A stretch of DNA of 64,000 bases from Asterionella formosa (GCA_002256025.1 NKIB01009402.1:1-64000); one strand, 5' to 3'; counted from the first letter of the stretch, positions 20,323-51,461 are shown. Program-made: numbers and translations. The notes: generated by a model not told the origin, from the sequence alone.

Positions 20323-22440
20323 CTGTAGTTGCAACAGAATCAGCAACCATTCCGGGAACCTCCTCTCACTTTTGCGAATCCCGAAAAGTGAAGCAATATG
20401 CACCTTTTCACAAGACAAAACTGTAAATGGGTGAAATGGTTAGATCGGTATATTTAGGTAATTATTTCACTAAATAGCAAGAATTTTTTGGACCGTTGAG
20501 GGCTTTTGATTTCTCATTGGCAAGCACATGCACTGAACCTCATCGGCGTATGTTATATCAGCTGTGCTGATAGACTAGCCCGAAAGAGATATAGTTAGAA
20601 TGTAAAAAGTATGCAGTTTTGGACAATTCAAAAATTGTTCTATACTAGACGTCATATAATTAGGCTAGATTTTTGACATCCATGTTGGCAGTCTCATCAG
20701 CCTCCTCTTGTGGTTGCGAAACGAGCAATCAACGATGTATTGCACCTGCTCTGGTTTCATATTACTACTGCCAATAGTTTGTTATCAAATGGTTAAGGAA
20801 AGCAGGGTTCTGGAGAAGCAAACAATATTCCAGAGGGGACATGATTCTACGATAAAAGAGCCCAAAAACGAGGCAAGTTCAAAGACATATTAGGTACACC
20901 ATTCGATTTGGAATAATTTTCAAACTGGTAAGACTGATAGCTGTAGAATTATCAGAGCTTTCGCTTCATGAAAGAACACACCAGAAAGTTTGGTTGCAAC
21001 TATATATGGTGAACAGAGGGAGTAAAACCAGGTACCTGGTGGAAGTACCATGATGTTACCAGTAGTCTAGGACTACTCATCAACAGGATTGGTGGGTACC
21101 AGATACTACTAATTGCTGGACCCAATAGGAATCACAAAGTCACAAAGTGCACACATTTTTAACAATCCTCCTTGGGGGACACAAAATCAGCAAATCGTTT
21201 TGACTTGCTGGAATCCATGTTTAGGCAGGAGTGGCTAGACTGGTTTTGTAGCCTTGTCCTGTTTGCTTTTTTTACAGCACAAAGTAATGTGATTTCTATC
21301 CTCGTCAGTCCCCCATATTTGTGGCTACACTATTCTATTTTAAACAAGTACCAATTGGGTGCTCATAAAATAATCTGTGAATGCAATATCAAAAGGTGAA
21401 ATGCAAAATTTTGAGTAGGTACATTTGTGATACATTATTTTACCAGGTACCTGGTACCTGGTACTGTAGGTATGTTGGACAGAAGGTTCAGCTGTATCGC
21501 AGTGACACCAAGTGTTTGTTAAAGTCATTCGATTCAATGGAAACCATGAAATTAAAGTGTGGGAGATGAGGGCAAAACAAGATTTACCTGGTACCGGTGG
21601 ATTGTTGACTCCCTTGGCGATGTATTTTTCACATTCTATTAATGCATACTACAAGACCTTCCTTGCTTGACTGTCGTGCACCAGCAAATAGACCGGTATG
21701 CAACCCGGTTATATTTGAGTCATAGGTCAACAAATTCAAGCGGGCTTTTACAGGTACTAGGTACCTGGTACTGTACACTATGTACCTGTACGTACTGGTA
21801 CTTTACCGTACTCCAACAGAATACCGGTACTATTATGCGTGGGTATACCGGTATTGTACACTATGAGGACACCTTGCTCGATGGTCTGGTAAAACACGTG
21901 TTTTACTTAAAAAAGGGTTAAGCTAAATATCTCGAATACCGCCCGTACCTTGCTTCATTTGATTGAATGTCGTATCCTAGATACTGGTACCGGTACCAGG
22001 TACCTGTAACTACCTGGTACCAGTGCCGGAAGGAGTGGGATGAATTTGAGGAGGAGGTGGAGTCATTTCGGGACATCTTCGTAGATATATACTATGAAGT
22101 GTATTCATGTATGAATACAGATCAAACATGTCGTGCGACGAATTACTTTTTATTAATTTATTAAATTTTATTAGCTACTTAACACAAAAAAACTCCTCGT
22201 CGATGACCTTAGTTGCATCTCATGTACAGAAATTTAAGTTTTTTTCATTTTAAATGAAGCAACAATATTAAAGAAATAAACCCGCACTCATGTTCTGGCA
22301 CCAGTAAACCGGTAATTAACATACAAGTGCTTCATTACTATACACTGATACAAGTGATTCATCGGTCCTATCTGACAACTTTAGATAGAGCAAGTCTATT
22401 TGCCGATAGCGGGAGAATCTCATTGAGTGTAACCCTAGGG

Positions 22441-30234: not shown

Positions 30235-30869
30235 TTCAACTGTAAATAGCTATGATGTAGTGACAGTGTTAGACTATATCTCGGCATTGAAGTGAATTTT
30301 GAATGCTTGCTTCTTCTTCATATCATGTCTAGCTTACACTCGGTAAACTAAACTTTGTTATATTTCTTTCAAGACTCCTTTTAATGGAAATATGGCTTTT
30401 CCTGTGCATGAGCCATTCCAGACGAATTGTGTGAGGGCAAACATGAGCCCTACATCATTAAAGAGAAATGAAAAAGACCAATGTTCCAGCACTACACAAC
30501 TTGGTAGCTGGTACCAGGTACCAGGTTCGCAGTATAGGAAATTTTTGTCGGTTCACAAAGACATAATTAATACTTCACCTAGTACCTGGTGCCAGATACT
30601 CTACACCTCTACATATGTATACCGGTAAAAAGGCAGTAGCTATTATGCATGGGAGTACGAGGTATTACTGGTACCTGGTACATACTGGTACTGGTCCCGT
30701 CCCAGCACTATCAGCCAGCGACCACCTAGATTTGATACCGGTATGCATCATCATGTTGACAAGTGTTGTTGGTTGCTTGGTTTAGTCACCCCACATACAT
30801 GGTATGATAGATGATAGCAATAGTTCCTGTTTGCTGCTTGTTGTTAGCCGCAATTTATCATAATGGACA

Positions 30870-31502: not shown

Positions 31503-32029
31503 GCATGAGCAATTCTTATCCACATGAATTCGAGGACCATTTTGATTTCTCGTCGTGTAATGTCACACGACTTAAAACTGTTGTTCGATATTCTTCGCGA
31601 TACACATGCAATTACTACACATGCATGAAAGTGAAATTCCAATCAATATACCGGTATACAACACATATGTATGTACCATCTGCTGTGCGAGGTTTCAAAC
31701 CATGGAAGCAATCACTCGGAGTAGGAACAGCGAAGACTTTTCAGTTTATTTATGTATTAGCGAATCTTCGCAGGGTTGAAGCGATGTCATCAGTTCGTCA
31801 AGCCTTCGCCTTCCATGTATAAGAAGCAAGCGATATCGGCTACATACTTTACTCCTGCTGAATGTATTATTGAACGAATGCAACAATTTCAAAGCAGCTT
31901 TCGCCAAGCTAACGGTCATTTTCGGTCACGACTGTGTGCTGTAGTCATAGCACTTGTGGTTGTTGGATGAATGTGTTTCACATTTTTTTCAAATACGTAT
32001 TTCGTCCTTCCATTTCAGTTCAATCAACA

Positions 32030-32788
32030 ATGACGTTGTGTTCCACGGATTCCCATCACCCTAACGACGATGCTGTTGAGGATCTTAGTAGAAGTGCCAT
32101 TGCCATTTCAATGTGTGCCACTGATTGCTATCACACTAAAGACTTCGATGCTGAGGAACATGGTAGCAATACGGACGAGAATGCTGTTAAGGAAAGTAAC
32201 CCTGGAATCTTCCATATCCTTATTTCGACCGTTTATGCCAAGGATGATGTTGTGAATGGAGGCATGCTGGAATGCAATGCCATGTCTACAGTTCTTGGAG
32301 TCTATCCAACCCAGGCACTTGCGACAGAAGCCTGTAATGGCAAGCAAGATGAGTTCAGCATGATGCAAATCAGTAACGGGAATGGAAAGCAAATCTTTCA
32401 TTGTTTTGGTGGCGAATGCACCACATTTCAAATTGCGAGTCATCCTATTATTCGTGGCAAAGGTCCCCTGGGTTCTGCCGCACCTCTCCAACAGGTTGAC
32501 CATTCCGAGAACAACGATGCATGTACTGGTGCTCATCCAAAGGTCTTTGTCGTTATCTCGACCTGTCACGCCAAGGATGATGTTGCAGAATGGGGTGGTC
32601 TAGAATGCAATGCGACTTCGACTGTCATTGGAGTCTATGAGACAGAAGCCCTTGCTACCAATGCATGTGACGAAAAGAAGCAATGCTTCCCCATGAGTAC
32701 TGCAGATGGATTATATTTCCATGATGGCAACACTGATTGCACTACCTTCCAGATTGTGGAACAAGCAATCACCACCAAAAACAAATGA
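32030..32788 (+). CDS. Hypothetical protein with two copies of an ~75-aa domain
   Basis: ISTVYAKDDV...LECNAMSTVLGVY...CTTFQI is repeated as ISTCHAKDDV...LECNATSTVIGVY...CTTFQI. The start is placed at ATG 32030. Confidence 0.75.
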   Translation: MTLCSTDSHHPNDDAVEDLSRSAIAISMCATDCYHTKDFDAEEHGSNTDENAVKESNPGIFHILISTVYAKDDVVNGGMLECNAMSTVLGVYPTQALATEACNGKQDEFSMMQISNGNGKQIFHCFGGECTTFQIASHPIIRGKGPLGSAAPLQQVDHSENNDACTGAHPKVFVVISTCHAKDDVAEWGGLECNATSTVIGVYETEALATNACDEKKQCFPMSTADGLYFHDGNTDCTTFQIVEQAITTKNK

Positions 32789-33149: not shown

Positions 33150-36100
33150 TTACTCTACAATGTCTGCATCTACAGAAAAGGGTGTGGGAAGTCGTTTGCT
33201 TTTGTCAGTCGGATGCCAATGGGCACCTGCTTGACTCAACAAAAAATCAACGTCGCCCCTAGGTGGATATGCCTGAGTAAAGTCATCCACGATTGATTGA
33301 GCATTGGCATCATTGAGGTCAGCTATATACACAGTTGCAGCCATTCTCATTTCCTTGTTTTCCAAATAATTCACAGCAGCCGTTGCATGATATGCAAGGT
33401 CACCCACCATCGAAGCAACGTTTGGTTGATACTTGTATTGTCCAATCAAATTTCTATCATCGTCAGATCTGTCAGGCAGAATGTCGAGCTCTGGACCAGT
33501 TTCATTAGCAAGAATCAACGGAATAATAACATTGAAAGCTTTGCCTTGAGTTTCTTTAAAGTCGTAATGCATATACCCAGTTTCACAATGAGACACACCA
33601 ATGAATGTTACGTGATAAACAGAAAGTCCATCAAGATCAAAGTAGGTACCAATGCTATTCAAAATTTCGTCAAACCCACCAGCACTCAAGATACGGAGGT
33701 ATTCTTTATGTGTCTCCTCATCGGCTGGAGATATCCAGTGCATGTTAGAATGCCAGAAGCTATGTGGCCGTTGAACATACCACTCATAACCCCCAAATTG
33801 ATCATAGCGGTGGCTGCCAGGTTCCAATGGTTCCCCATCAATCTGTAATTTTCGAAATGCCTCCGTGATTCCAGTCCTGTCGCAATAGTCCAAGAGTGTC
33901 TTGGGAAGGATTTCTGGCAAGCCCACACGAAACGCAAACTCACTTGGTGCTTCCCCATTTCCAAGCCATCGCAATTGTGAAATCTCATTTGGCTGAAGGG
34001 AGTTGGCAATAAAATCACCAGTGGTGACTGGAATCGGCAATTTCTTCAAAGAATCTGCTTTCTTCCAATGCAGGCCTGCCTTTTCCAGGAGATTTTGTGC
34101 ATCGGCGTTACGCAGGTAGGATAATTCAAGAGTGTCTAAAACAGCATTGACGTTATCTTTGCTAATGTCAGCAAGAAGAATCTCCACCACCATTTGCATT
34201 TCCTCATCCACTCGGTAGTCGCATTTAGCAACTGAATGAATTGCTCCATCTCCTATGATGATACCAACATCATCCTCAAAGTGATATGGCCCCATTGTCT
34301 GCCTGTCATTTGACCAAATTTCGAGTTCTGGACCAACATTTTCTCCAAGAGAGATTGGTATGAGGATCTTGAAAATTTTCCCTCCAGAATCAGGTAACAA
34401 GCGATCGAAGCTTCGAGCATTGCGACTCACACCCATGATAGCTACTGAGTACACAGTCAGTGAATCCAATTCATAGTGAACACCTATGCGATCAATTACT
34501 TGATCGAAACCACCGGCACTTAGAACAGTCAAGAAATTGTCGTGTGCAGCCTCATCACCTGGTATAAGCCAGTGAAGATTCAGAGAATTGTCGGCAGGTC
34601 GTTGGATAAACCAATTGAATCCTCGAAAGACTTCGGGTTCTCGGCCGCCAGGTTTCAAGTAATCTTGGAATATTAGCGTGCCATGAAAGTAGTCTACCAT
34701 TGTCATTCGAGTAATGAATGATCGCAACTTGTCAATTAAGGACAGAGGCAGGCCAATTCGGTCTGCATACTTTGTCAGAGTGCCAACTGCCCACTTCATT
34801 GGAGCGATCTCGCCTACAGCAACAGGTGCCATGTCGCTGGCGATGAATGGTTTTGGAAGTTTCACGCTGCCATCTGGCTTCCAGTTAGTTGCAGCTCGAC
34901 GCAGCAAATGCTCAGGATCGTCTGCCGGAGGGAATGCTTGAGTAAAATCTATCATCAATCGTTTAAGATTCTTGGGGTTGACATCTGCAATATATACAGT
35001 CGCTGCCATTCTCATTTCCTTGTTGTCACGATAGTCACACGCAGCCGTAGCATGCTTGGCCATGTCGCCAACGATATTTGCAACATTGTGTTCATACTTG
35101 TAGCTACCAACTGGAAGATCATCTTTCCATTCATCACCATCTTGCCTCAAATCTAACTCCGGACCTGTTTTATTCGCTAGAATAAGGGGAATAATGATAT
35201 TGAAAGCTTTGCCGTCAATGTCCTTGAAATCATGGTGCATGAAACCCTTGGAACAATGACTCACTCCAATAAATGTTACATGGTAAGCCACCAAACCGTC
35301 CAATCCAAAATGCTTTCCAATTTCATCCAGGATACTGTCAAAGCCACCTTCGCTAAGTATTCTTAAGTAGTCATCATGTGCATCTTCGTCCGCTGGAGAA
35401 ATCCAATGCATATTTGACTTCCAGTGACTTTCCGGTCGCTGGACGTACCAATTGTAGCCACCAAATGGAGTGAAAAGATCAGTTCCTGGCGTCAAGGGAT
35501 TGCCGTCAATGAGAAGCTGTTTGAAGGCATCAGTGATTCCAACACGGTTGCAATAGTTCAAGAGTGTTTCAGATATCTTTTTATCCAATCCAATGCGGAA
35601 TGCATACTTGGACACAGTCTCGTTCGTTTTGGCCCATCTAACTTGAGATATTTCGTTTGCTTTCAAGGGAACATTGGCAAAAGCATCCGCTTCACGGATT
35701 GGTGTATCCATCCAAATTTGGGGATAGAGCAAAGGAGGCACACCAATCATATGACGAAAGGCACCAGGCAAATATTGATCTGTCGAATACGAGCGGTCTA
35801 CAAGTTTAATTTGATTTGCTGGGACGTTCGTTACTACATGGGTCTGAGTGGGACTCAAGAAGCAAGCATATGTTCCCACTAGATTTCCCACTGTATGCAT
35901 CATTGCTGTGTAATGGATTGATCCATCATTAGAGACTCTTTCCACAATATCACACGGTCGTAAACATCCTATATGGTGAACTTCCCATTCAATCTCGAAT
36001 TCTTCCTCCTCTGCTTCATCGCCTTCCACGTTATGAACCTTGTAAACACAAGCCGTCCGTATATTATCAGGATAAGGCTTTGTCTTCTGCTCAGTTGTTG

Positions 36101-37553
36101 TTCGGAACACTTCACCTTGGTGAAGCTTGGTGTAATCAGATGCCGAGAGATAAGATGGATCCGATGCTTCCCAACGTCCAACATGATCCTCCCATGCGCT
36201 TGTCCAATCCAAGCCGTAGTCCAAGAAGAGCTCTTCGTCTGGCCCAATGTCTCTCAACGCCACGTAGTCAATCGCCAATCCGCGTCCTTCACTCAAAAGC
36301 TGAGCAGGCACCTTGTCAAGATAGGATTTGTCAAAGAATATCGATCCCCACTGGATCGCTACATTTGGTTCTGGTGAGTGATTGATAAAATTCACAACAG
36401 GTGAGGTGGGAAGTAGGGCGACGGGAGAGTTGGGATGACCAAAAAGATAGTTGGTTAGGAGTTGCTGCCCAATTATCTTTGTAGCGTTGTACACGAATCC
36501 GGTGGCGCCTCCTAATTTGGTTGACAAGTCCTGTTCCATCATGTCCATTTCCCTTTTATCAAAGTGGATAACAGGTGAGCTTGCCACGATGGCGCCTTTG
36601 CCTGTGAATCTCGAGGTGAAGGCACCTCTCCCTGCGCCAGGGATGGTAGACACCCCAGGTTTAAGAGTGTCGATACAAATGGCATGCCTCTTCAACCAAT
36701 CGCTTGACTTCGGAGCTGGAGGGGTTGGAAATTTCTTCTGGTCTCCGTTGCAGTTAACGAACAACTCTTGCCCCTTCTTGATTTTCCGAATAGAATGTGT
36801 TGTGTAGTTTTGTCGATAGGAGAAACTTCCAGCGGAGGGATGTGTAGATCGATGAACTCCAGCAGAGTCTTGTGAGTCTTGCTCGTGTTTTACATTGGCC
36901 CAAGTCTGTTAAAGAAGTAGAATGCAGATATAAGCGGTTAGGTATATTGTAAAAAAAGAAAGGTTAACAGTAATGAAGATTGTGAAAATACAAATGCGAA
37001 CCACCCCTATGTGGAGGTTTGGGAGGGTGCAAAAAGCGAACACTAAAAGAATGGTTTGCGCGCTTGCGACAGGATCCGACGCAGCCGGCATGTCTCGATC
37101 CGTGCGCGGCTCAGCTCGAAAAAATCCAACGCAGCGCCATGGTCGGAACCGGAATGATTGGTGACTCACCTCGTGACACTGAATATGCGTTCCAAGTCCA
37201 GGAACAAAGGCATCAATAATAAATTTGTTTTCGAAGACCAACGTCTCGCTCATGTCGGCAGCCCAGACGAAATCATGCCACAGCGACTTTTCGCGCTTGT
37301 TGGGATCGATAATGGAAACGACCATTTCTGGCCTGCCAATTTGCGTTGGCTTGTTAATATTGACACCCGAAAAGACTCCCAGACCTCCTGAATTTGATGT
37401 CCCCATGTACAGTTGACAATCAGGTGAGGACAGTGTTCGTCGCTTGAGATCGGAAGCGCATGTCTCTGGGGAGGTGCAAGACTCTGAATGCAAGTCGTTC
37501 TGCGCCAAAGCAAGCACTGGAACGAGGACCCAGGAGCGAAAGAGGAGGTTCAT
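33150..37553 (-). CDS. Secretory-pathway protein with two SET domains and three Fe(II)/2OG-dioxygenase-like repeats
   Basis: Exon 1 runs 37553-37170 (signal peptide MNLLFRSWVLVPVLALA), followed by a GTGAGT...ACAG intron at 37169-36906. Exon 2 (36905-33150) is in frame. SET motifs: GAGRGAF, NFINHSPEPNV, ALRDIGPDEELFLDYG. The C-terminal repeats carry HHD/HYD...HAT...RMA. Confidence 0.85.
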
Positions 37554-37839: not shown

Positions 37840-38200
37840 CCGGTACCAGGTACCGGTAGTCAGACTAGTAGTACCTGGTACTAGTACCTGGTAGCATCAA
37901 ATGGAACATAAATGATCACTAAACAGGGCAAACAGGGTACATACTGACATGCATAAATTATTTACCAGCTAAACGAGTACCAGATGTGTACATACCGGTA
38001 GTTACCTAGTCTACCAAGTACCACATCCTCAGCATGGTGGCTGATGACAATGGGCCTACAGTACCGGTACGTGGGCTGATACGGGGTACCGGTACCTGGT
38101 ACCTCGAGTGCCTGGCACATACCTGGCACAGTACTACAGTACAAATGCAACTACCGGTACTGTTAGGATGAAGGCATCGTTCATACCGGTACTTGTCCAT
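37840..38200. repeat. Cluster of palindromic GGTACC/ACCWGGT/ACCGGT low-complexity motifs (representative; recurs in most intergenic regions)
   Basis: Examples are cggtaccaggtaccggtag, gtacctggtactagtacctggtag and ggtaccggtacctggtacc. Similar clusters occur at about 205-390, 686-706, 9375-9480, 21440-22025, 30510-30745, 38555-38645, 44185-44295 and 55865-56110. Confidence 0.85.
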
Positions 38201-38860
38201 ATTTGATACACATTAAATTCACAGGTATGCTTTTGATCACTCAACAGTCGTATCCGTTATCTATAAACTGTAAGCGCATGCTCACCATCGTACAATGAAG
38301 GGCCTGGCTATGATACATATGCCCGGCTATGAATATTTTGGTTCATAATTGAGAACTACGAACAACTACCATTCCGTACCAGAGATTTAAAATAGACCCA
38401 AATATGAATGAATTTATTGTAGAACGATCTACCACTAGACTAGTGGTACTTTATTCATTGATTCTGCATTCGACACATTGCGGTCAGGTATTTATGCTGT
38501 CGTCCTGTACAAATATTGATTTCGATGCACAACTTGTTTCGATCACGCCACGCTACCAGGTACCAGGTATGATGGTACTGGTACCTGGTACCTGGTACCA
38601 GGTACCAGTACGGCAATCTTGGATCCACGGACGGTACTTGGTATCTTCTACATAACTACAGTATGGTTAACAAATATACTGGCAACTGCGTACATAGCCT
38701 TGATTTCATGATGTATCGGTACATAAAAATCCTACACCATCGCTCAGGAGGGGGGCGTCAACTATTTATGGAACAAGAGGGAGGGAGGGAGCGAGCTGTT
38801 TTCAATCAATCATCAACGGTTCATCACATAAATCTATATTGTGTATTCTTCGTCAGGAAA

Positions 38861-41617
38861 ATGGCATCCACTCAAGTCAAAGCTTCGCAATCATCAGAGA
38901 CAAACGACAAGAAGCCGTCTCTCTTGACGAGCGCCCTCGCTCCCTTGACAGATACAGTCCGAATGATTCCCCAGTTTGGCCAGACATGCTTTGCGAGATT
39001 TACCCTGTCAAATGCGGAATCACATACCATTGGCCCAGTCATGCAAGACTTTAGAAACACCAATACCCCTGCTACCTACGTCAAGGATGTCATGGCATCC
39101 ATTCCAGTCCATTCCGACTTGATCTCGGGGATTCGGTGTCAGAAAGTTACGAATGGGGGAAAGTTTATGAATCGTATTTTGACCATTTCAAATGATCGAT
39201 TTGCACTCTTTGTCACTCACAACAAGGTGAAAGGCAGTCGTATAGGAAATGGGGTCTTGTCCTCCATGGCATCCAAGTTGCCTCTGCCGTTCGTGTCCCG
39301 GAAAGGCATTCGTGGATTCAATAGCGGGGATTTGAGAGAGCGCTATGTTCGTTACGTGGACGTCTCGGATATTTCCTTTATTCATGAGGGGTTTCCATGT
39401 ACTAGAAAGATGGAGTATTCTAGGTCATCGAATCGCTTGAAGGGAAAGAAATCTCATGTGGACAGGAACAAGGAGCAAATTGTATCAATTGTGTTTCGTG
39501 GGAACGATAGTTTGGATGTCTTGATTGAAGATGTTGCGCAGCGACAAGCTCTAGTTCAAACCCTCAAAGCCATGATTCAAAAGTATCATGAATCGAAGTT
39601 CTATGTTGTCGACGAAGCGAGACTTCTTCGTTATATTTGGTACGACATTGATATCAACCAAGATGGACTGGTTTCTGAAAGCGAATTTGTCAGTATTGTG
39701 AACCGCATCAACATGTATGTCAAGAATACTAGGCAACTGTATCAAGATTACAAGAAAGAAGGAAATGTCAAGGGCCATCTAACCTACCGTCAATGCATGT
39801 CGCTTCTTCAAGGAATCGAAGAAGGCAAGTATGACAGTCGGTACAGTATGCAATCGCTCAAGCTTTGGGATCAAATCTTTGGAGAAGTGGATTATGTCTC
39901 TGCCGAAGACTTTCTCGTCAAGTTTTTGCATGCCCAACAAAAGGAAATGGACGCGACCCTGTTTGATGTTCGTCGTCTGTTGCATGCCGTCAATAAAATG
40001 GAAGTTAATCGCGACGAGTCGACTTTGCCCGTCAGGGAAGAGTTTATTTCAAAGACGAGATTCAAGAATTATTTGCATCATTCCTTTAATGCTGCATTTG
40101 GTCCAGACCATCAAGAGTTACATCGTGAAACCATGCATCGGCCTTTGACGGAATATTGGATCAATACTTCTCACAATACCTACTTGACGGGGGATCAGCT
40201 TCAGTCCCTTTCGTCAGTCGAATGCTACGCTGCTGCTTTACGACGGGGTTGCAAGTGCTTGGAATTAGATTGCTATAATGGTGAAAAGGACAGTCTGACA
40301 AGTGATCCAATCCCAGTTGTTTATCATGGTGGTACTTTCACCTCCAAGCTTTTGTTTGAAGACATTGTGGAGGTTGTCAAATCTTACGTTGAGTCCAATC
40401 CAGATACCTATCCCATTATCCTCTCTCTTGAAAACCACTGCTCCAAGCCTTATCAACGAGTCATGGCAGATATTTTGCGCGAAAATCTTGGAACTCTGCT
40501 TTATGCACCGTTCGAAGGCACTAAACCGGCAAGAACGAGTAATGAAAAGGCAATTATGCATGTCGTCCCATCACCCGAAGCTTTGCGAGGTAAGGTTATC
40601 ATCAAGGGCAAGCGACCACCAGAGGCTGACGATGGTCCGGACGAAGCAGACGATGTAACAATCGACAACGAAATTGACCCTTATGAAGGGGAAGTATTGA
40701 GTGCGGCAACTCGTCAAGATGCCAAACAGACACCGACTGAGGTCAAAAAGCAAGAAGCCACAACTGGCACGATTCCCACGAAATCTCTGCCGGAACATGA
40801 GATTGTCAAGGAGCTTGCAACTCTGACCCTTTTCCATGGAATTCAATTTAAAGACTTTAAGAAGTCAATGGACGAGCCCACCTCGCACATGCACTCCATT
40901 GGTGAAACTAAAATTGGCAAGATTCTCGGCAAGTCTGCCAATAATTCTGCCCTTTGGCGGGAATACAATGCAACTCACATGACACGAACCTATCCCTCTG
41001 GCGCCCGAGTTGATTCCTCGAATTATAATCCAGTTCTAGCCTGGAGCTTGGGGTGCCAATTGGTGGCTTTGAACTTTCAGACGAGCGATACTCCTCTCAT
41101 TCTCAATGATGGCCGATTCAGGCAGAATGGTCATTGTGGCTATGTGTTGAAGCCTCCTTCGGTGCTGGGTCATGGTTCTGTCCAACGGTCTGAGCCAGTG
41201 ACTGTCAATATTAGGGTGCTATCCGGTTGCTGTCTCCCCAAGCCTGGGGGTTCGAAGACCGGTGAGACCATTGATCCCTACGTCAAGATCAGTATGCACG
41301 ACGTGCAACGGAAGGGAGGCAAGGACAGCTCGACGGTTGAATCGGAGGTCACCGAAACGATTAACGACAATGGGTTCTCTCCGAATTGGGACGAGAGCAA
41401 GTTTCATAAGTTTCAGGTGCACAGTCCAGATGTTGCCATGGTCCATTTCAGTTTGATGGAATCTGATCTCGGGTTGGATGAAAGGATTAGTCATTCTGTG
41501 GTCCCCCTGACATGTATGAGGCAGGGCTATCGTTCGATTTTAATGCACGACAAGTACGGAACGAGAACAGGTGCGTTTGGGTTTGCGACACTGGTGGTGC
41601 AGATTCAAATTGAATAG
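38861..41617 (+). CDS. Phosphoinositide-specific phospholipase C (PH-like, EF-hand, X, Y, C2)
   Basis: YWINTSHNTYLTGDQL, GCKCLELDC, VVYHG, PIILSLENHC, RTYPSGARVDSSNYNP, QLVALNFQT, DPYVKI, GYRSI. The start is placed at ATG 38861. Confidence 0.95.
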   Translation: MASTQVKASQSSETNDKKPSLLTSALAPLTDTVRMIPQFGQTCFARFTLSNAESHTIGPVMQDFRNTNTPATYVKDVMASIPVHSDLISGIRCQKVTNGGKFMNRILTISNDRFALFVTHNKVKGSRIGNGVLSSMASKLPLPFVSRKGIRGFNSGDLRERYVRYVDVSDISFIHEGFPCTRKMEYSRSSNRLKGKKSHVDRNKEQIVSIVFRGNDSLDVLIEDVAQRQALVQTLKAMIQKYHESKFYVVDEARLLRYIWYDIDINQDGLVSESEFVSIVNRINMYVKNTRQLYQDYKKEGNVKGHLTYRQCMSLLQGIEEGKYDSRYSMQSLKLWDQIFGEVDYVSAEDFLVKFLHAQQKEMDATLFDVRRLLHAVNKMEVNRDESTLPVREEFISKTRFKNYLHHSFNAAFGPDHQELHRETMHRPLTEYWINTSHNTYLTGDQLQSLSSVECYAAALRRGCKCLELDCYNGEKDSLTSDPIPVVYHGGTFTSKLLFEDIVEVVKSYVESNPDTYPIILSLENHCSKPYQRVMADILRENLGTLLYAPFEGTKPARTSNEKAIMHVVPSPEALRGKVIIKGKRPPEADDGPDEADDVTIDNEIDPYEGEVLSAATRQDAKQTPTEVKKQEATTGTIPTKSLPEHEIVKELATLTLFHGIQFKDFKKSMDEPTSHMHSIGETKIGKILGKSANNSALWREYNATHMTRTYPSGARVDSSNYNPVLAWSLGCQLVALNFQTSDTPLILNDGRFRQNGHCGYVLKPPSVLGHGSVQRSEPVTVNIRVLSGCCLPKPGGSKTGETIDPYVKISMHDVQRKGGKDSSTVESEVTETINDNGFSPNWDESKFHKFQVHSPDVAMVHFSLMESDLGLDERISHSVVPLTCMRQGYRSILMHDKYGTRTGAFGFATLVVQIQIE

Positions 41618-46041: not shown

Positions 46042-48079
46042 TTAATAAAATGTTCTGGCCCTCCTAGTTAGCAAGAACAAACCTGTGCAACGAAAGAAAA
46101 GAAACGATGCAAGTAAAACCAACCAATACCACCAAACATCATCCGAAACAACATTTAGAGTCATCATAAGGTAGTGACAACTCAAGTTCCCGAATGGCGA
46201 TCCACAGTCTCTATTGAAATTTTGTTCCACATGAAGCTTGACTCCATAGGTAAGCGGCATGACATATTGCAGCCATCTCAGCCATGCTGGGATATTTGAT
46301 GGTTGAATGCAGAAGCCAGCAAAAAGAATTTGAGGAACAAAGACCACTGGAAGAAATTCAATTCCCGATCCGGCATCATGTACGCCGGATCCAATCATCA
46401 CGGCAATCGCTGTAGAGGTCATGGCAAGGGAGTAGATAATGAGATAGTGCCAGCCAAAGCCAAGTTGAAACTGCATCATGAAGTATGACACGAGAGCCAA
46501 GAGAAACATCTGAATCGCCGTCAACGATCCTTCCACTACAAGTCGGGACATAAAATAGGCGACGGTTGTGTAGTGGTTAGTGGAATACTCTCGTATGAAT
46601 ACCGGCCGCTCTTGGGGAAAGACAATAAGTGAGGGTAACGCAGTACCGAACATGGACACCATCAACACAATAATTTCCGCTCCAAACTGAGACTGGATAT
46701 TTTCATTGACTGCAGGATCTGTATTTCCCACTTTAAAAAATATACATCCAGTTAAAAAAGACATAGTTGTTGTGAGACAAAGGCGATATCCGATAATATG
46801 TGGATCTCGACTTATGGCTACAAAATCTCTTTTAAGCAACAGTCTGATTTGAACGCCGACACTGACGTGATTGGCGGATTGAGATGGCTTCCCCAACACA
46901 ATCTTTTCCAATACAGTAGATGGCTCAATCTGGTCGGTTATATCATTCTCATAGAAGCCCAACTTCTCCAAGTCTTTGTCAGGAACAGATTGCGCTACGA
47001 TCATTATCCAATCAGCGGGATTATATTTTGGAGGTAACGGTTGTTGCCGAGTTCCGAAGTAGTCTGGTACATCTTGGACACTGCCGTTGTACATAACTCG
47101 CCCTTTGTTGAGTAGAATTAAATGATCAAAGGATTCGAAAATGTCGGATGCTGGCTGGTGAATAGTGAACATAACAGAAGCTCCAGCGTTGGACATCTTC
47201 TTCAATACCTGGCACAATTGGAGAGCACTGAACGAATCGAGACCTAATAGCCACGCACAGTGCAATTAGGTCGATTGTTGCAGTGGTAGTCTACAGGTGA
47301 GTCGATTTTTTTTAACATACCGAGTAATGTTTAGCATAGCCAAAGAATAGTGTACGCACCGCTTGTCGGCTCGTCGAGGAACACCATGGATGGTTTCGTA
47401 ACAAGCTCAACACCAACACTGGTTCTCTTGCGCTCGCCTCCAGAAATACCCTTCAGTAAGGCCCCACCAACAATTGTATCCGCACAATCACAGAATCCCA
47501 ATTCTTCCAACATTTGTGTAGTCAAACGATCCAATTCATCATCTGTAGTTTCCTTGGACAATCTTAGTTTGGCGCTGAATCGAAGACTTTCTCGAGGCGT
47601 ACTAGCAATATGAAGACTGTCGTCTTGAGAAACAAAAGCAATCTGCTGCCTGATCTCCAACGAAGCTGGGTTGACGGCACAATTGTTGAGGCGCACATCA
47701 CAACGGACAGTCAATGTACCCCGTGTGACACTCCGACCCGACAAAACATTCAGCAAGCTTGTCTTTCCCGATCCACTGGGTCCCATAATGGCTGTGGTCT
47801 GTTGGGCAGGAACTTGACCAAAAACATCATTTAAGATTACTTTGTCAGTTTTCCCAGCTTTCTTGGAAGCACTGAAAGGCATTTGAGGCATTGAATTAGT
47901 AAAGTGACGAGGAATCATCAATCTCCTAATAGGTCAATTAGCACGGCAAATTCTCACACTTTCATTTGAACTTTGCTCCAAGTTAAACATTTCCCTTCTC
48001 GAGCCGCAAAAGGATTATCACGTCTTCCAGATTCGATATCTGCTGATTTAATGGGTTGACACTGTATGTTACGGAACAT
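46042..48079 (-). CDS. ABCG (White family) half-transporter, copy 1
   Basis: Exons 48079-47958, 47871-47360 and 47243-46042. Walker A GPSGSGKT, ISGGERKR, FLDEPTSGLDS (joined across intron 2), TIHQP, and a C-terminal ABC2 membrane domain. Confidence 0.93.
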
Positions 48080-49394: not shown

Positions 49395-51461
49395 TTAAAA
49401 GAATGTATTGGCCTTTCTTCTGAGCAAGAACAAACCTGTACAACGAAAAACAACAAATAATGACAGCATGACCACCCAATACCACCACACATCAGATGCA
49501 ACCACATTTAAGTTACTCAAGAGTTTTTGACAATTCACATCTCCAAGTGGTGATCCACAGTTTCTATTGAAATTTCGTTCCACATGCAGCTTGACTCCAT
49601 AGGTAAGCGGCATGACATATTGCAGCCATCTCAGCCATACTGGGATGATTGAAGGCTTTATGAAGAAACCAGCAAAGAGAATTTGTGGAACAAAGACCAT
49701 TGGGAGAAATTCAATCGCCGATCCTGCATCGTGCACACCAGATCCGATCATCACGGCAATTGCTGTAGAGGTCATGGCAAGGGAGTAGATAATGAGATAG
49801 TGCCAGCCAAAGCCAAGCTGAAACTGCATCATGAAGTATGACACGAGAGCCAAGAGAAACATCTGGATCGCCGTCAACAAACCTTCAACTACAAGTCGGG
49901 ACATAAAATAGGCAACGGTTGTGTAGTGGTTGGTAGAAAACTCTCTCAGGAAAACTGGTCGCTCTTGGGGAAAGACAATAAGTGAGGGTAACGCAGTACC
50001 GAACATGGACACCATCAACACAATAATTTCCGCTCCAAACTGAGACTGGATATTTTCATAGACTGCAGGATCTGTATTTCCCACTTTAAAAAATATACAT
50101 CCAGTCAAAAGAGACATGAAGGACGTGAGGAAAAGGCGAAATCCGAGAACACGTGGATCTCGTCTCATAGCTGCAAAATCTCTTTTAAGCAACAATCTGA
50201 TTTGAACGCCAACACCGACGTGATTGGCGGATTGAGATGGCTTCCCCAACACAATCTTTTCCAATACAGTAGATGGCTCAATCTGGTCGGTTGTATCATT
50301 CTCATAGAAGCCCAACTTCTCCAAGTCTTTGTCAGGAACAGATTGCGCTACGATCATTATCCAATCAGCGGGATTATATTTTGGAGGTAACGGTTGTTGC
50401 CGAGTTCCGAAGTAGTCTGGTACATCTTGGACACTGCCATTATACATAACTCGCCCTTTGTTGAGTAGAATTAAATGATCAAAGGATTCGAAAATGTCGG
50501 ATGCTGGCTGGTGAATAGTGAACATAACAGAAGCTCCAGCGTTGGACATCTTCTTCAATACCTGGCACAATTGGAGAGCACTGAACGAATCGAGACCTAA
50601 TAGCCACGCACAGTGAAATTAGGTCGATTGTTGCAGTGGTAGTCTACAGGTGAGTGGATTTTTTTTCAAACATACCGAGTAATGTTTAGCATAGCCAAAG
50701 AATAGTGTACGCACCGCTTGTCGGCTCGTCGAGGAACACCATGGATGGTTTCGTAACAAGCTCAACACCAACACTGGTTCTCTTGCGCTCGCCTCCAGAA
50801 ATACCCTTCAGTAAGGCCCCACCAACAATTGTATCCGCGCAATCACACAATCCCAATTCTTCCAACATTTGTGTAGTCAAACGATCCAATTCATCATCTG
50901 TAGTTTCCTTGGACAATCTTAGTTTGGCGCTGAATCGAAGACTTTCTCGAGGCGTACTAGCAATATGAAGACTGTCGTCTTGAGAAACAAAAGCAATCTG
51001 CTGCCTGATCTCCAACGAAGCTGGGTTGACGGCACAATTGTTGAGGCGCACATCACAACTGACAGTCAATTTACTCCGTGTGACACTCCGACCCGACAAA
51101 ACATTCAGCAAGCTTGTCTTTCCCGATCCACTGGGTCCCATGATGGCTGTGGTCTGTTGGGCAGGAACTTGACCAAAAACATCTTTTAAGATGACTTTGT
51201 CAGATTTCCCCTTTTCCTTTGAGGTACTGAATTGTTTATAGAAGGAAAAAATTTCTAATGAGTACAGTGTGACTAAAGTAATCTACGGCAAACAGGCGAA
51301 AGCCAATCATTACGGCAACGTTATACTCACACTTTCATTTGAACGTTGCGCCATGTTAAGTACTTGCCCTCGCGTTGAGCAAAAGGGTCGTCACGTGCGC
51401 CAAACTCGACATCGACTCCTTCCAGCGGTTGAGATGTTTGGCTATGAAAGATTTCTGTCAT
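49395..51461 (-). CDS. ABCG (White family) half-transporter, copy 2 (tandem paralog)
   Basis: Exons 51461-51331, 51226-50715 and 50596-49395, with the same motifs and intron positions as copy 1. Confidence 0.93.

Follow-up and report, generated by a model that had tools for sequence, protein, structure and literature searches.

BacSET proteins are said to be restricted to diatoms and to combine a SET domain with a signal peptide for the endoplasmic reticulum (ER). SET domains methylate protein lysines using S-adenosylmethionine (SAM), and enzymes of the double-stranded beta-helix (DSBH) fold that carry an HxD...H triad hydroxylate C-H bonds with O2 and 2-oxoglutarate (2OG). Both kinds of component are predicted in a single gene of the diatom Asterionella formosa, which lies on the minus strand of the 64,000-nucleotide stretch of DNA analysed here (GCA_002256025.1, NKIB01009402.1:1-64000; hereafter the window) and in which a SET module is followed by three repeats of an oxygenase-like domain. 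Diatom silica is templated by proteins with di- and trimethyl-lysine, trimethyl-delta-hydroxylysine and dihydroxyproline, and the locus and its family are clonable candidate genes in this context. Passages of PMC4557024 record both epsilon-N,N,N-trimethyl-delta-hydroxylysine and 3,4-dihydroxyproline as constituents of diatom walls and state that, in silaffin-1A, hydroxylation falls on those lysines that are trimethylated. Section 3.8 of a preprint on Seminavis robusta (bioRxiv 10.1101/2020.11.23.393678) describes 24 BacSETs that peak at cytokinesis along with cell-wall genes. A search of the literature, most subscription journals aside, gave no paper on diatoms in which a 2OG oxygenase is linked with a SET domain, and neither that search nor the passages of reviews it returned name an enzyme for the hydroxylation of silaffin lysines or for other wall hydroxylations. 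The two fusions described below, SET-oxygenase and oxygenase-ShK-prolyl 4-hydroxylase (P4H), are undescribed in the searchable literature, and the original BacSET description or preprint supplements may hold prior notice of them. Their component kinds (SET, PhyH-like 2OG oxygenase) are known; the oxygenase family itself is absent from Pfam.

We propose that the product of this gene is a soluble multi-enzyme protein of the secretory pathway that modifies lysines by both methylation and hydroxylation, its substrates being secreted, lysine-rich proteins associated with the cell wall or with silica. We give this reading an even chance, and within it we infer all of catalysis, the luminal site, lysine as the target of hydroxylation and the link to silica. 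The gene and the parts of its predicted product are as follows.

33150..37553, minus strand: whole gene from ATG to stop, two exons, 1379 amino acids (aa)
37170..37553, minus strand: exon 1, 128 codons, with the signal-like N-terminus and the first half of the degenerate SET1
36906..37169, minus strand: intron of 264 nucleotides (nt), GT..AG, phase 0, inside SET1 between ...QCHE and TWANV...
33150..36905, minus strand: exon 2, 1251 codons plus the stop codon at 33150-33152
37500..37553, minus strand: putative signal peptide (MNLLFRSWVLVPVLALAQ...), called by a hydropathy heuristic
36690..37421 (intron included), minus strand: SET1, a degenerate SET-like duplicate, about aa 44-200
36168..36683, minus strand: SET2, predicted intact SET domain, aa 203-374, with GAGRGAF, NHSPEPN (36383-36363) and ELFLDYG (36233-36213)
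35688..36161, minus strand: linker, aa 377-534, Cys-rich and mostly beta, with C414, C446, R512 and W526 invariant
34833..35678, minus strand: repeat 1 (R1), intact by its motifs, with H-H-D at 35237-35229, the distal His at 35054-35052 and Arg at 35012-35010
34011..34832, minus strand: repeat 2 (R2), degenerate, with D-R-L for HxD and Gln for Arg, the distal His being retained
33153..34010, minus strand: repeat 3 (R3), intact by its motifs, with H-Y-D at 33569-33561, the distal His at 33389-33387 and Arg at 33347-33345; the repeat that was modelled

An earlier note, made from the DNA sequence alone, had read this locus as one gene for a secreted SET-SET-oxygenase fusion and had allowed that RNA data might split it into several. 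The single gene survives this test: because RNA contigs show the splice joint and span the whole open reading frame (ORF), the locus is one spliced diatom nuclear gene and not several. The joint 36905|37170 (264 nt skipped, CT..AC on the plus strand) was present in all four RNA runs examined, which come from three studies, and single RNA contigs of 6680 nt (run X1, polyA) and 6642 nt (run X5) cover the ORF from end to end. The start codon ATG lies at 37553-37551, the GT donor at 37169, and the AG acceptor ends at 36906; the spliced product is identical to the public 1379-aa protein P0121, whose 90% cluster holds two more members of the same length. Of 14 public runs listed, 12 hold the locus or part of it, 11 of them RNA runs from nine studies; the RNA data comprise metatranscriptomes from lakes or fresh water and one polyA library, in which contig depth cannot rank expression. 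The X1 contig extends about 2 kb beyond the stop codon across opposite-strand ORFs, which is probably an unstranded merge of convergent transcripts. The motif positions given in the earlier note were all reproduced (NHS at 36383, ELFLDYG at 36233-36213, HHD at 35237-35229, HYD at 33569-33561, RMAATVY at 35012 and 33347), and its three repeats of about 280 aa, placed from 35690, 34850 and 34020, were found to start at 35678, 34832 and 34010.

The assignment of the repeats to the Fe(II)/2OG oxygenases, likewise proposed earlier, is borne out by structure prediction. An AlphaFold2 (AF2) model of R3, made from a 54-sequence alignment, forms a DSBH with a predicted local distance difference test score (pLDDT) of 93.9 and a predicted template modelling score (pTM) of 0.92, and its top Foldseek matches are all Fe(II)/2OG oxygenases (TlxIJ, AsqJ, OkaE, the CurA halogenase, P4H and PHD2; E about 1e-7, best 1.5e-7, TM about 0.45). 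In an unfiltered structural search of 48,161 representative chains, the best 50 all had the 2OG-oxygenase fold (Z 12.3-9.7). Re-ranking placed the CurA halogenase domain (CurA Hal) first with a Z of 12.9 (root-mean-square deviation (rmsd) 3.6, 204 residues aligned), followed by SnoN (12.5) and by OkaE and AsqJ (both 12.3). Because these top structures align 204-213 of 286 residues over model residues 1-281, each repeat is predicted to be one complete PhyH-like oxygenase domain. PhyH-like chains (CurA Hal, SnoN, AsqJ, OkaE, PrhA, PHYHD1) score Z 12.9-11.5, with P4H, OGFOD1 and AlkB-type chains only 1-3 Z lower. A protein-language-model search gave bacterial '2OG-Fe(II) oxygenase' (0.96) and HalD PF23169 (0.94) as the nearest clusters, and a standalone family member from Skeletonema marinoi bears the UniRef label 'Fe2OG dioxygenase domain-containing protein'. 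On the model and its neighbours, we regard the enzyme class as secure. A SUMO- or eS25-like N-terminus, which a profile search of the PDB offered for the first ~60 residues of the repeat, was not significant (E 0.33-1.3) and was rejected, also because the structural matches place these residues in the oxygenase's own N-terminal region.

The candidate active-site residues occupy the expected places in this fold. In the R3 model the HxD motif comes directly after strand 129-139, strand 207-210 contains the distal His, and the Arg is the first residue of strand 222-230, which is the usual DSBH arrangement; judged from these model strands, HxD..H..R occupies the positions of the iron triad and of the basic residue that binds 2OG. 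R222, which is 14 residues past H208 and opens its strand, would by its position bind the C5-carboxylate of 2OG. In R3 numbering, H208 is invariant and H148, D150 and R222 are nearly invariant across 54 sequences. The stored relatives hold 469 domain instances, 367 of which have all four columns, and HxD..H..R is complete in 338 of these, with the carboxylate ligand Asp kept in 352 and the Arg column occupied by Arg in 351. A halogenase reading, raised by the neighbours CurA Hal, HalB and HalD, was ruled out by this retention of the Asp ligand. As the earlier note had seen, R1 and R3 keep HxD, the distal His and the Arg, a combination now found conserved family-wide; because the HxD...H triad and the putative 2OG-binding Arg are retained, both should be active hydroxylases.

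The three repeats are clearly related to one another (R1 and R3 60% identical, R1 and R2 38%), and tblastn of R3 on the window recovered R1 at E 3.7e-113 and R2 at E 1.3e-52, with no further copies in the 64 kb beyond the three. An orthologue, P0122, is 62% identical overall and shares the three-repeat layout, the dead R2 included. The repeats of the two proteins pair by position in a tree (support 100/98 for R1, 100/100 for R2 and 97/94 for R3), with positional identities of 75%, 56% and 70%, respectively. As the P0122 repeats pair in this way and its R2 is likewise degenerate, the dead R2 is old and still conserved. R2 would then be a pseudo-enzyme that acts as a scaffold or binds substrate, and a non-catalytic scaffold or binding domain is the most likely reading, because its catalytic residues are lost yet the repeat is conserved in the orthologue. 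Two predicted active copies and one dead copy in tandem would make a tidy case of a pseudo-enzyme kept within a multi-enzyme chain.

N-terminal to the repeats, both earlier SET assignments, one intact domain and one degenerate domain split by the intron, stand. With a cut-off of 22.4 bits, Pfam PF00856 reaches 54.0 bits on the spliced protein (two stretches, the stronger at aa 220-359) and 43.6 bits when exon 2 is scored by itself, and N303, H304, E353, Y358 and G359 of SET2 are invariant in an alignment of 61 relatives. Scored on the motifs GxG, NH(S/C)xxPN and ELxxDY with its Tyr, SET2 is intact and SET1 is not. The AF2 model of aa 1-537 (pLDDT 88.1, pTM 0.86) matches the SET folds of SET7/9 (Z 11.9, rmsd 5.0, 145 residues aligned), EZH2 (11.4), MLL1 (10.3) and SET8 (10.1). 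On motifs and model together, SET2 is a complete predicted lysine methyltransferase domain. SET1 aligns with SET2 in hhalign at 95.2% probability (E 2.6e-8, 135 columns) and is matched by a custom hidden Markov model (HMM) at E 6e-61; it has CH/CS where SET2 has NH and a Cys where SET2 has the catalytic Tyr, which marks it as a conserved but degenerate SET duplicate by sequence.

Within SET1, the motif GVHRSxDPxAGSFSY (P0121 aa 150-170; ~36840-36780, minus strand) forms part of the 50% majority consensus of the 61 aligned sequences, where only G154 is nearly invariant. It hints that the pseudo-SET domain has a conserved role other than catalysis. The linker that follows has no named relatives, and its nearest clusters are diatom-only. 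Chains of Tudor domains (SGF29, ERCC6-L2, LBR, TDRD3) align weakly with 56-75 residues of it (Z 5.5-5.8, model residues 377-499); scores of this size do not tell relatives from chains that share a common arrangement, and the likeness to a Tudor/SH3-like barrel may serve as a lead only. SET1, SET2 and the linker travel as one conserved module.

The fusion of this module to the oxygenase domain recurs among the relatives. With a threshold of E 1e-3, a profile of the three repeats found 582 cluster representatives, 253 of them at E up to 1e-30, and stored proteins were sorted with custom HMMs for SET1, SET2, linker and oxygenase. In this 480-protein sample, which is biased by the queries, 258 proteins contain the oxygenase but lack SET2, 174 combine the two, and 43 contain SET2 but no oxygenase; the oxygenase domain also occurs alone, as in the standalone homologues P0010 and P0397 of ~340 aa. 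One near-complete oxygenase copy is present in 142 of the 174, two copies in 15, three in 15 and no near-complete copy in two, so that the three-copy form of the window gene appears to be the rarer variant (15 against 142). PF00856 was found in 75 of the 120 longer relatives listed. With both domains in 174 of 480 proteins, PF00856 in these longer relatives and the three-repeat layout shared by P0122, the SET-oxygenase fusion is, on sequence grounds, recurrent and not an assembly accident. It is carried by Cylindrotheca fusiformis, the source of silaffin-1A (P0167, 807 aa, with SET1, SET2, linker and oxygenase), and also by Attheya (P0182). The earlier note had called for a taxonomic survey, in which every relative with an organism name proved to be a diatom (Seminavis, Fragilaria, Skeletonema, Cylindrotheca, Attheya, Mayamaea, Cyclotella, Thalassiosira, Stephanodiscus, Stephanocyclus); Phaeodactylum is known in the family for the SET-only form. 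A search for prokaryotic relatives gave 11 pattern stretches in genome contigs, none confirmed, and was a weak one with two peptide patterns only.

The Thalassiosirales carry a second fusion, in which a signal-like N-terminus is followed by two oxygenase domains, a ShK domain and a P4H-type domain (PF13640). Six such proteins (P0425, P0427, P0435, P0444, P0468, P0293) measure 1100-1330 aa, with PF13640 at the C-terminus. The two recurrent partners of the oxygenase, SET and P4H-type, both modify protein side chains, which argues for a protein substrate, and the presence of the P4H-type partner argues against 4-prolyl hydroxylation as the activity of the oxygenase domain. The same fusion, seen in 17 of the 120 longer relatives listed, supports a different assignment, by which the repeats hydroxylate proline, for instance by a 3-hydroxylation that together with P4H gives 3,4-dihydroxyproline, and the SET fusion reflects only shared substrates. 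Proline hydroxylases are indeed among the structural neighbours (H11 at Z 11.1-11.3, Pseudomonas putida P4H at 10.7, Chlorella-virus and Chlamydomonas P4Hs at 10.5-11.0), although their Z values are not above those of other subfamilies. SET fusions are far commoner (75 against 17 of the 120), and SET enzymes act on lysine. 3,4-Dihydroxyproline is a known residue of diatom walls, as a passage of PMC4557024 records. Overall we consider proline as the target unlikely, though the most serious of the alternatives weighed here, and retain lysine as the preferred target of the repeats.

The N-terminus of the protein is putatively signal-like, in agreement with the earlier note. Residues 1-25 are hydrophobic, with a mean Kyte-Doolittle value of 2.89 over nine residues from near residue 9, and their AF2 pLDDT is below 50, as expected of a signal peptide. 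By the same hydropathy heuristic, most relatives also begin with a hydrophobic stretch: 102 of the 121 SET-first proteins and 81 of the 117 that are DSBH-first. The invariant cysteines of the linker and the signal-like ShK and P4H-type fusions of the Thalassiosirales also fit a secretory setting. The family presents an oxygenase domain invisible to Pfam, so far only in named diatoms, fused to a lysine methyltransferase or P4H-type domain and signal-like at the N-terminus in most members.

In the mechanism that we propose, the signal-bearing protein would enter the secretory pathway and act in its lumen, where SET2 would transfer methyl groups from SAM to lysine epsilon-amines and R1 and R3 would hydroxylate as Fe(II)/2OG oxygenases. 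Methylation and hydroxylation could then occur in one pass, giving residues such as epsilon-N,N,N-trimethyl-delta-hydroxylysine.

Several results weigh against this proposal. The putative signal peptide is judged by the hydropathy heuristic, and the protein has no retention signal. The fusion is not universal, as Phaeodactylum P0206 consists of two SET modules with no oxygenase domain, and the P4H-type fusions could be explained just as readily by activity on proline or by no more than a co-substrate role. The RNA runs that hold the locus, lake or freshwater metatranscriptomes and one polyA library, are not linked to silicon or the cell cycle. At the sequence level, Pfam, whose curated models of this superfamily include PF13640, PF03171, PF05721 and PF02668, matches none of the window's repeats at E up to 1, just one of 54 family members touches PF13640 (E 0.039), and a profile search of PDB sequences with the repeat gave nothing significant. 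The fold gives no pointer to lysine, because the nearest structures (CurA Hal, SnoN, AsqJ, OkaE, PhyH) use small-molecule or carrier-bound substrates and enzymes that hydroxylate proteins come further down the list (mimivirus lysyl hydroxylase Z 9.8, P4H and PHD2 Z 10.5-11).

These neighbours, together with SnoK and PrhA among the best structural matches, are what one would expect if the repeats acted on a small molecule or on polyamine chains (long-chain polyamines, a free amino acid) and the SET domain methylated the same non-protein substrate. The HalD (PF23169) clusters among the language-model neighbours point the same way, this family containing free-lysine and free-ornithine halogenases and hydroxylases. 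The structural neighbours, most of which act on small molecules, cannot by themselves decide the substrate, and SET domains are generally known as protein-lysine methyltransferases; moreover, both recurrent partners are protein-modifying, and the retained HxD speaks against a halogenase. In favour of such a substrate, a passage in PMC11554505 suggests that SET proteins influence polyamine methylation. Taken together, a non-protein substrate seems to us rather improbable.

The covalent link to SET would also fit control of the methylation state, with the repeats as N-methyl-lysine demethylases and writer and eraser on one chain. 2OG oxygenases of the JmjC and AlkB/FTO kinds demethylate by hydroxylating N-methyl groups. 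No JmjC chain was among the best 50 structural matches listed in either search, a weak point in that such an absence excludes nothing; a fused writer and eraser would, however, be futile if not regulated, and stable methylated lysines accumulate in silaffins, as stated in a passage of PMC4557024. We therefore regard demethylation as very improbable, the least favoured of the functions considered, and prefer hydroxylation of lysine as the role of the repeats.

The connection to biosilica would rest on the SET fusion, the occurrence in Cylindrotheca fusiformis, the co-expression of BacSETs in Seminavis and the P4H-type fusion, and is drawn from context. A catalytic fusion might also serve outside silica, by modifying adhesive, mucilage or extracellular-matrix proteins or ShK-type peptides: the neighbours of the gene in the window are ordinary housekeeping genes, nothing found there ties it to silicon, and the ShK domains fused to some relatives are general extracellular modules. 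Set against this are the restriction of every named relative to diatoms, the peak of BacSETs alongside wall genes in the preprint section on Seminavis (bioRxiv 10.1101/2020.11.23.393678), and the exact agreement of the modifications predicted from the domains with those that the passages of PMC4557024 describe in diatom walls. A role apart from silica is accordingly one that we think has a small chance of being right, and cell-wall or silica-associated proteins remain the preferred substrates.

A bolder version of our proposal, possible but doubtful, would make the oxygenase family the long-missing enzyme for delta-hydroxylation of protein lysines in diatoms, joined in cis with a SET trimethylase. 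The Cys-rich, Tudor-like linker would recognise methyl-lysine and relay its side chain between SET2 and the oxygenase, the lysine-rich substrate would be held by the dead R2, and the Thalassiosirales P4H fusions would be a sister 'hydroxyproline plus hydroxylysine' machine acting on the same wall proteins. If true, the cis fusion would explain why the trimethylated lysines of silaffin-1A are hydroxylated ones. With such candidate genes, an old open question on wall hydroxylation becomes one of simple experiments, and the domains could be parts for making recombinant peptides with silaffin-like modifications.

The surroundings of the gene, in the 64-kb window, give no functional hint (neighbouring genes include a PI-PLC, ABC-2 transporters, methyltransferases, dymeclin and others). 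The PI-PLC gene, with X and Y catalytic domains and a C2 domain, lies at 38573-41617 on the plus strand and is divergent from the fusion gene, with which it has a motif-rich upstream region of ~1 kb in common. The motif is the palindrome GGTACCWGGTACC, of which the window contains 23 occurrences with at most one mismatch (0.01 expected), often in heptamer arrays, at 236-702, 6070, 9462, 21446-22004, 30503-30682, 37842-38606, 54446 and 55909. Its clusters occupy intergenic stretches immediately upstream of ORFs, among them the divergent region that separates the fusion gene from the PI-PLC gene, and the motif resembles an element that this genome places near promoters. At the other end, a 291-aa ORF at 31913-32788 on the plus strand converges on the 3' end of the fusion gene; it has an internal duplication (halves with ...VISTxxAKDDVxxxGxLECNAxSTVxGVY...) and no Pfam match, and RNA contigs cross both it and the fusion gene, probably through an unstranded merge of overlapping 3' ends. 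Two ABC-2-type transporter ORFs on the minus strand (46045-47933 and 49398-50618), both of 407 aa with near-identical Pfam profiles and one adjoining an ABC ATPase ORF, look like a tandem gene duplication.

How, then, does the predicted enzyme compare with described systems? Like BacSET, it is a diatom SET protein with a signal-like N-terminus; its named relatives are all from diatoms, and its SET1-SET2-linker module is common to the SET-only proteins P0206 of Phaeodactylum and P0199 of Cylindrotheca closterium. Unlike BacSET as described in the citing passages, which mention no oxygenase, it has three oxygenase domains after the module. These resemble PhyH-like oxygenases (the CurA halogenase domain, SnoN/SnoK, AsqJ, OkaE, PrhA/AndA, PHYHD1, PhyH), on which the whole repeat superposes with Z 12.9-11.5 and 200-219 of 286 residues aligned, and with which it has the HxD...H...R arrangement in common. 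They differ from these enzymes in that identity is only 9-14% with no Pfam or PDB sequence match, and in that the repeats stand in tandem, have SET or P4H-type domains as fusion partners, follow a signal-like N-terminus and occur, among named organisms, in diatoms only.

Collagen lysyl hydroxylases (PLOD/LH3) hydroxylate lysine at C5, the position hydroxylated in the trimethyl-hydroxylysine of diatoms. They and the mimivirus enzyme L230 (PDB 6ax6; Z 9.8, 154 residues aligned) resemble the predicted fusion in their DSBH fold, secretory pathway and multifunctional chain; the lysyl hydroxylase, however, is without sequence relation to the repeats, is fused to glycosyltransferase domains rather than SET, and ranks below the PhyH-like enzymes. 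Trimethyl-lysine hydroxylase (TMLH) of carnitine biosynthesis is likewise an Fe/2OG hydroxylase with a trimethyl-lysine substrate, a substrate that for the window protein is only proposed. TMLH, a mitochondrial enzyme of the TauD/BBOX class, uses free trimethyl-lysine and hydroxylates it at C3, and it is not among the best 50 structural matches listed for R3. A further comparison is with the type represented by Cyclotella cryptica P0427, annotated as a procollagen-proline 4-dioxygenase: it has the same oxygenase family in tandem (43-50% identity to R3) and signal-like N-termini, and this Thalassiosirales type differs from the window protein in that ShK and PF13640 take the place of the SET module as the partner of the oxygenase.

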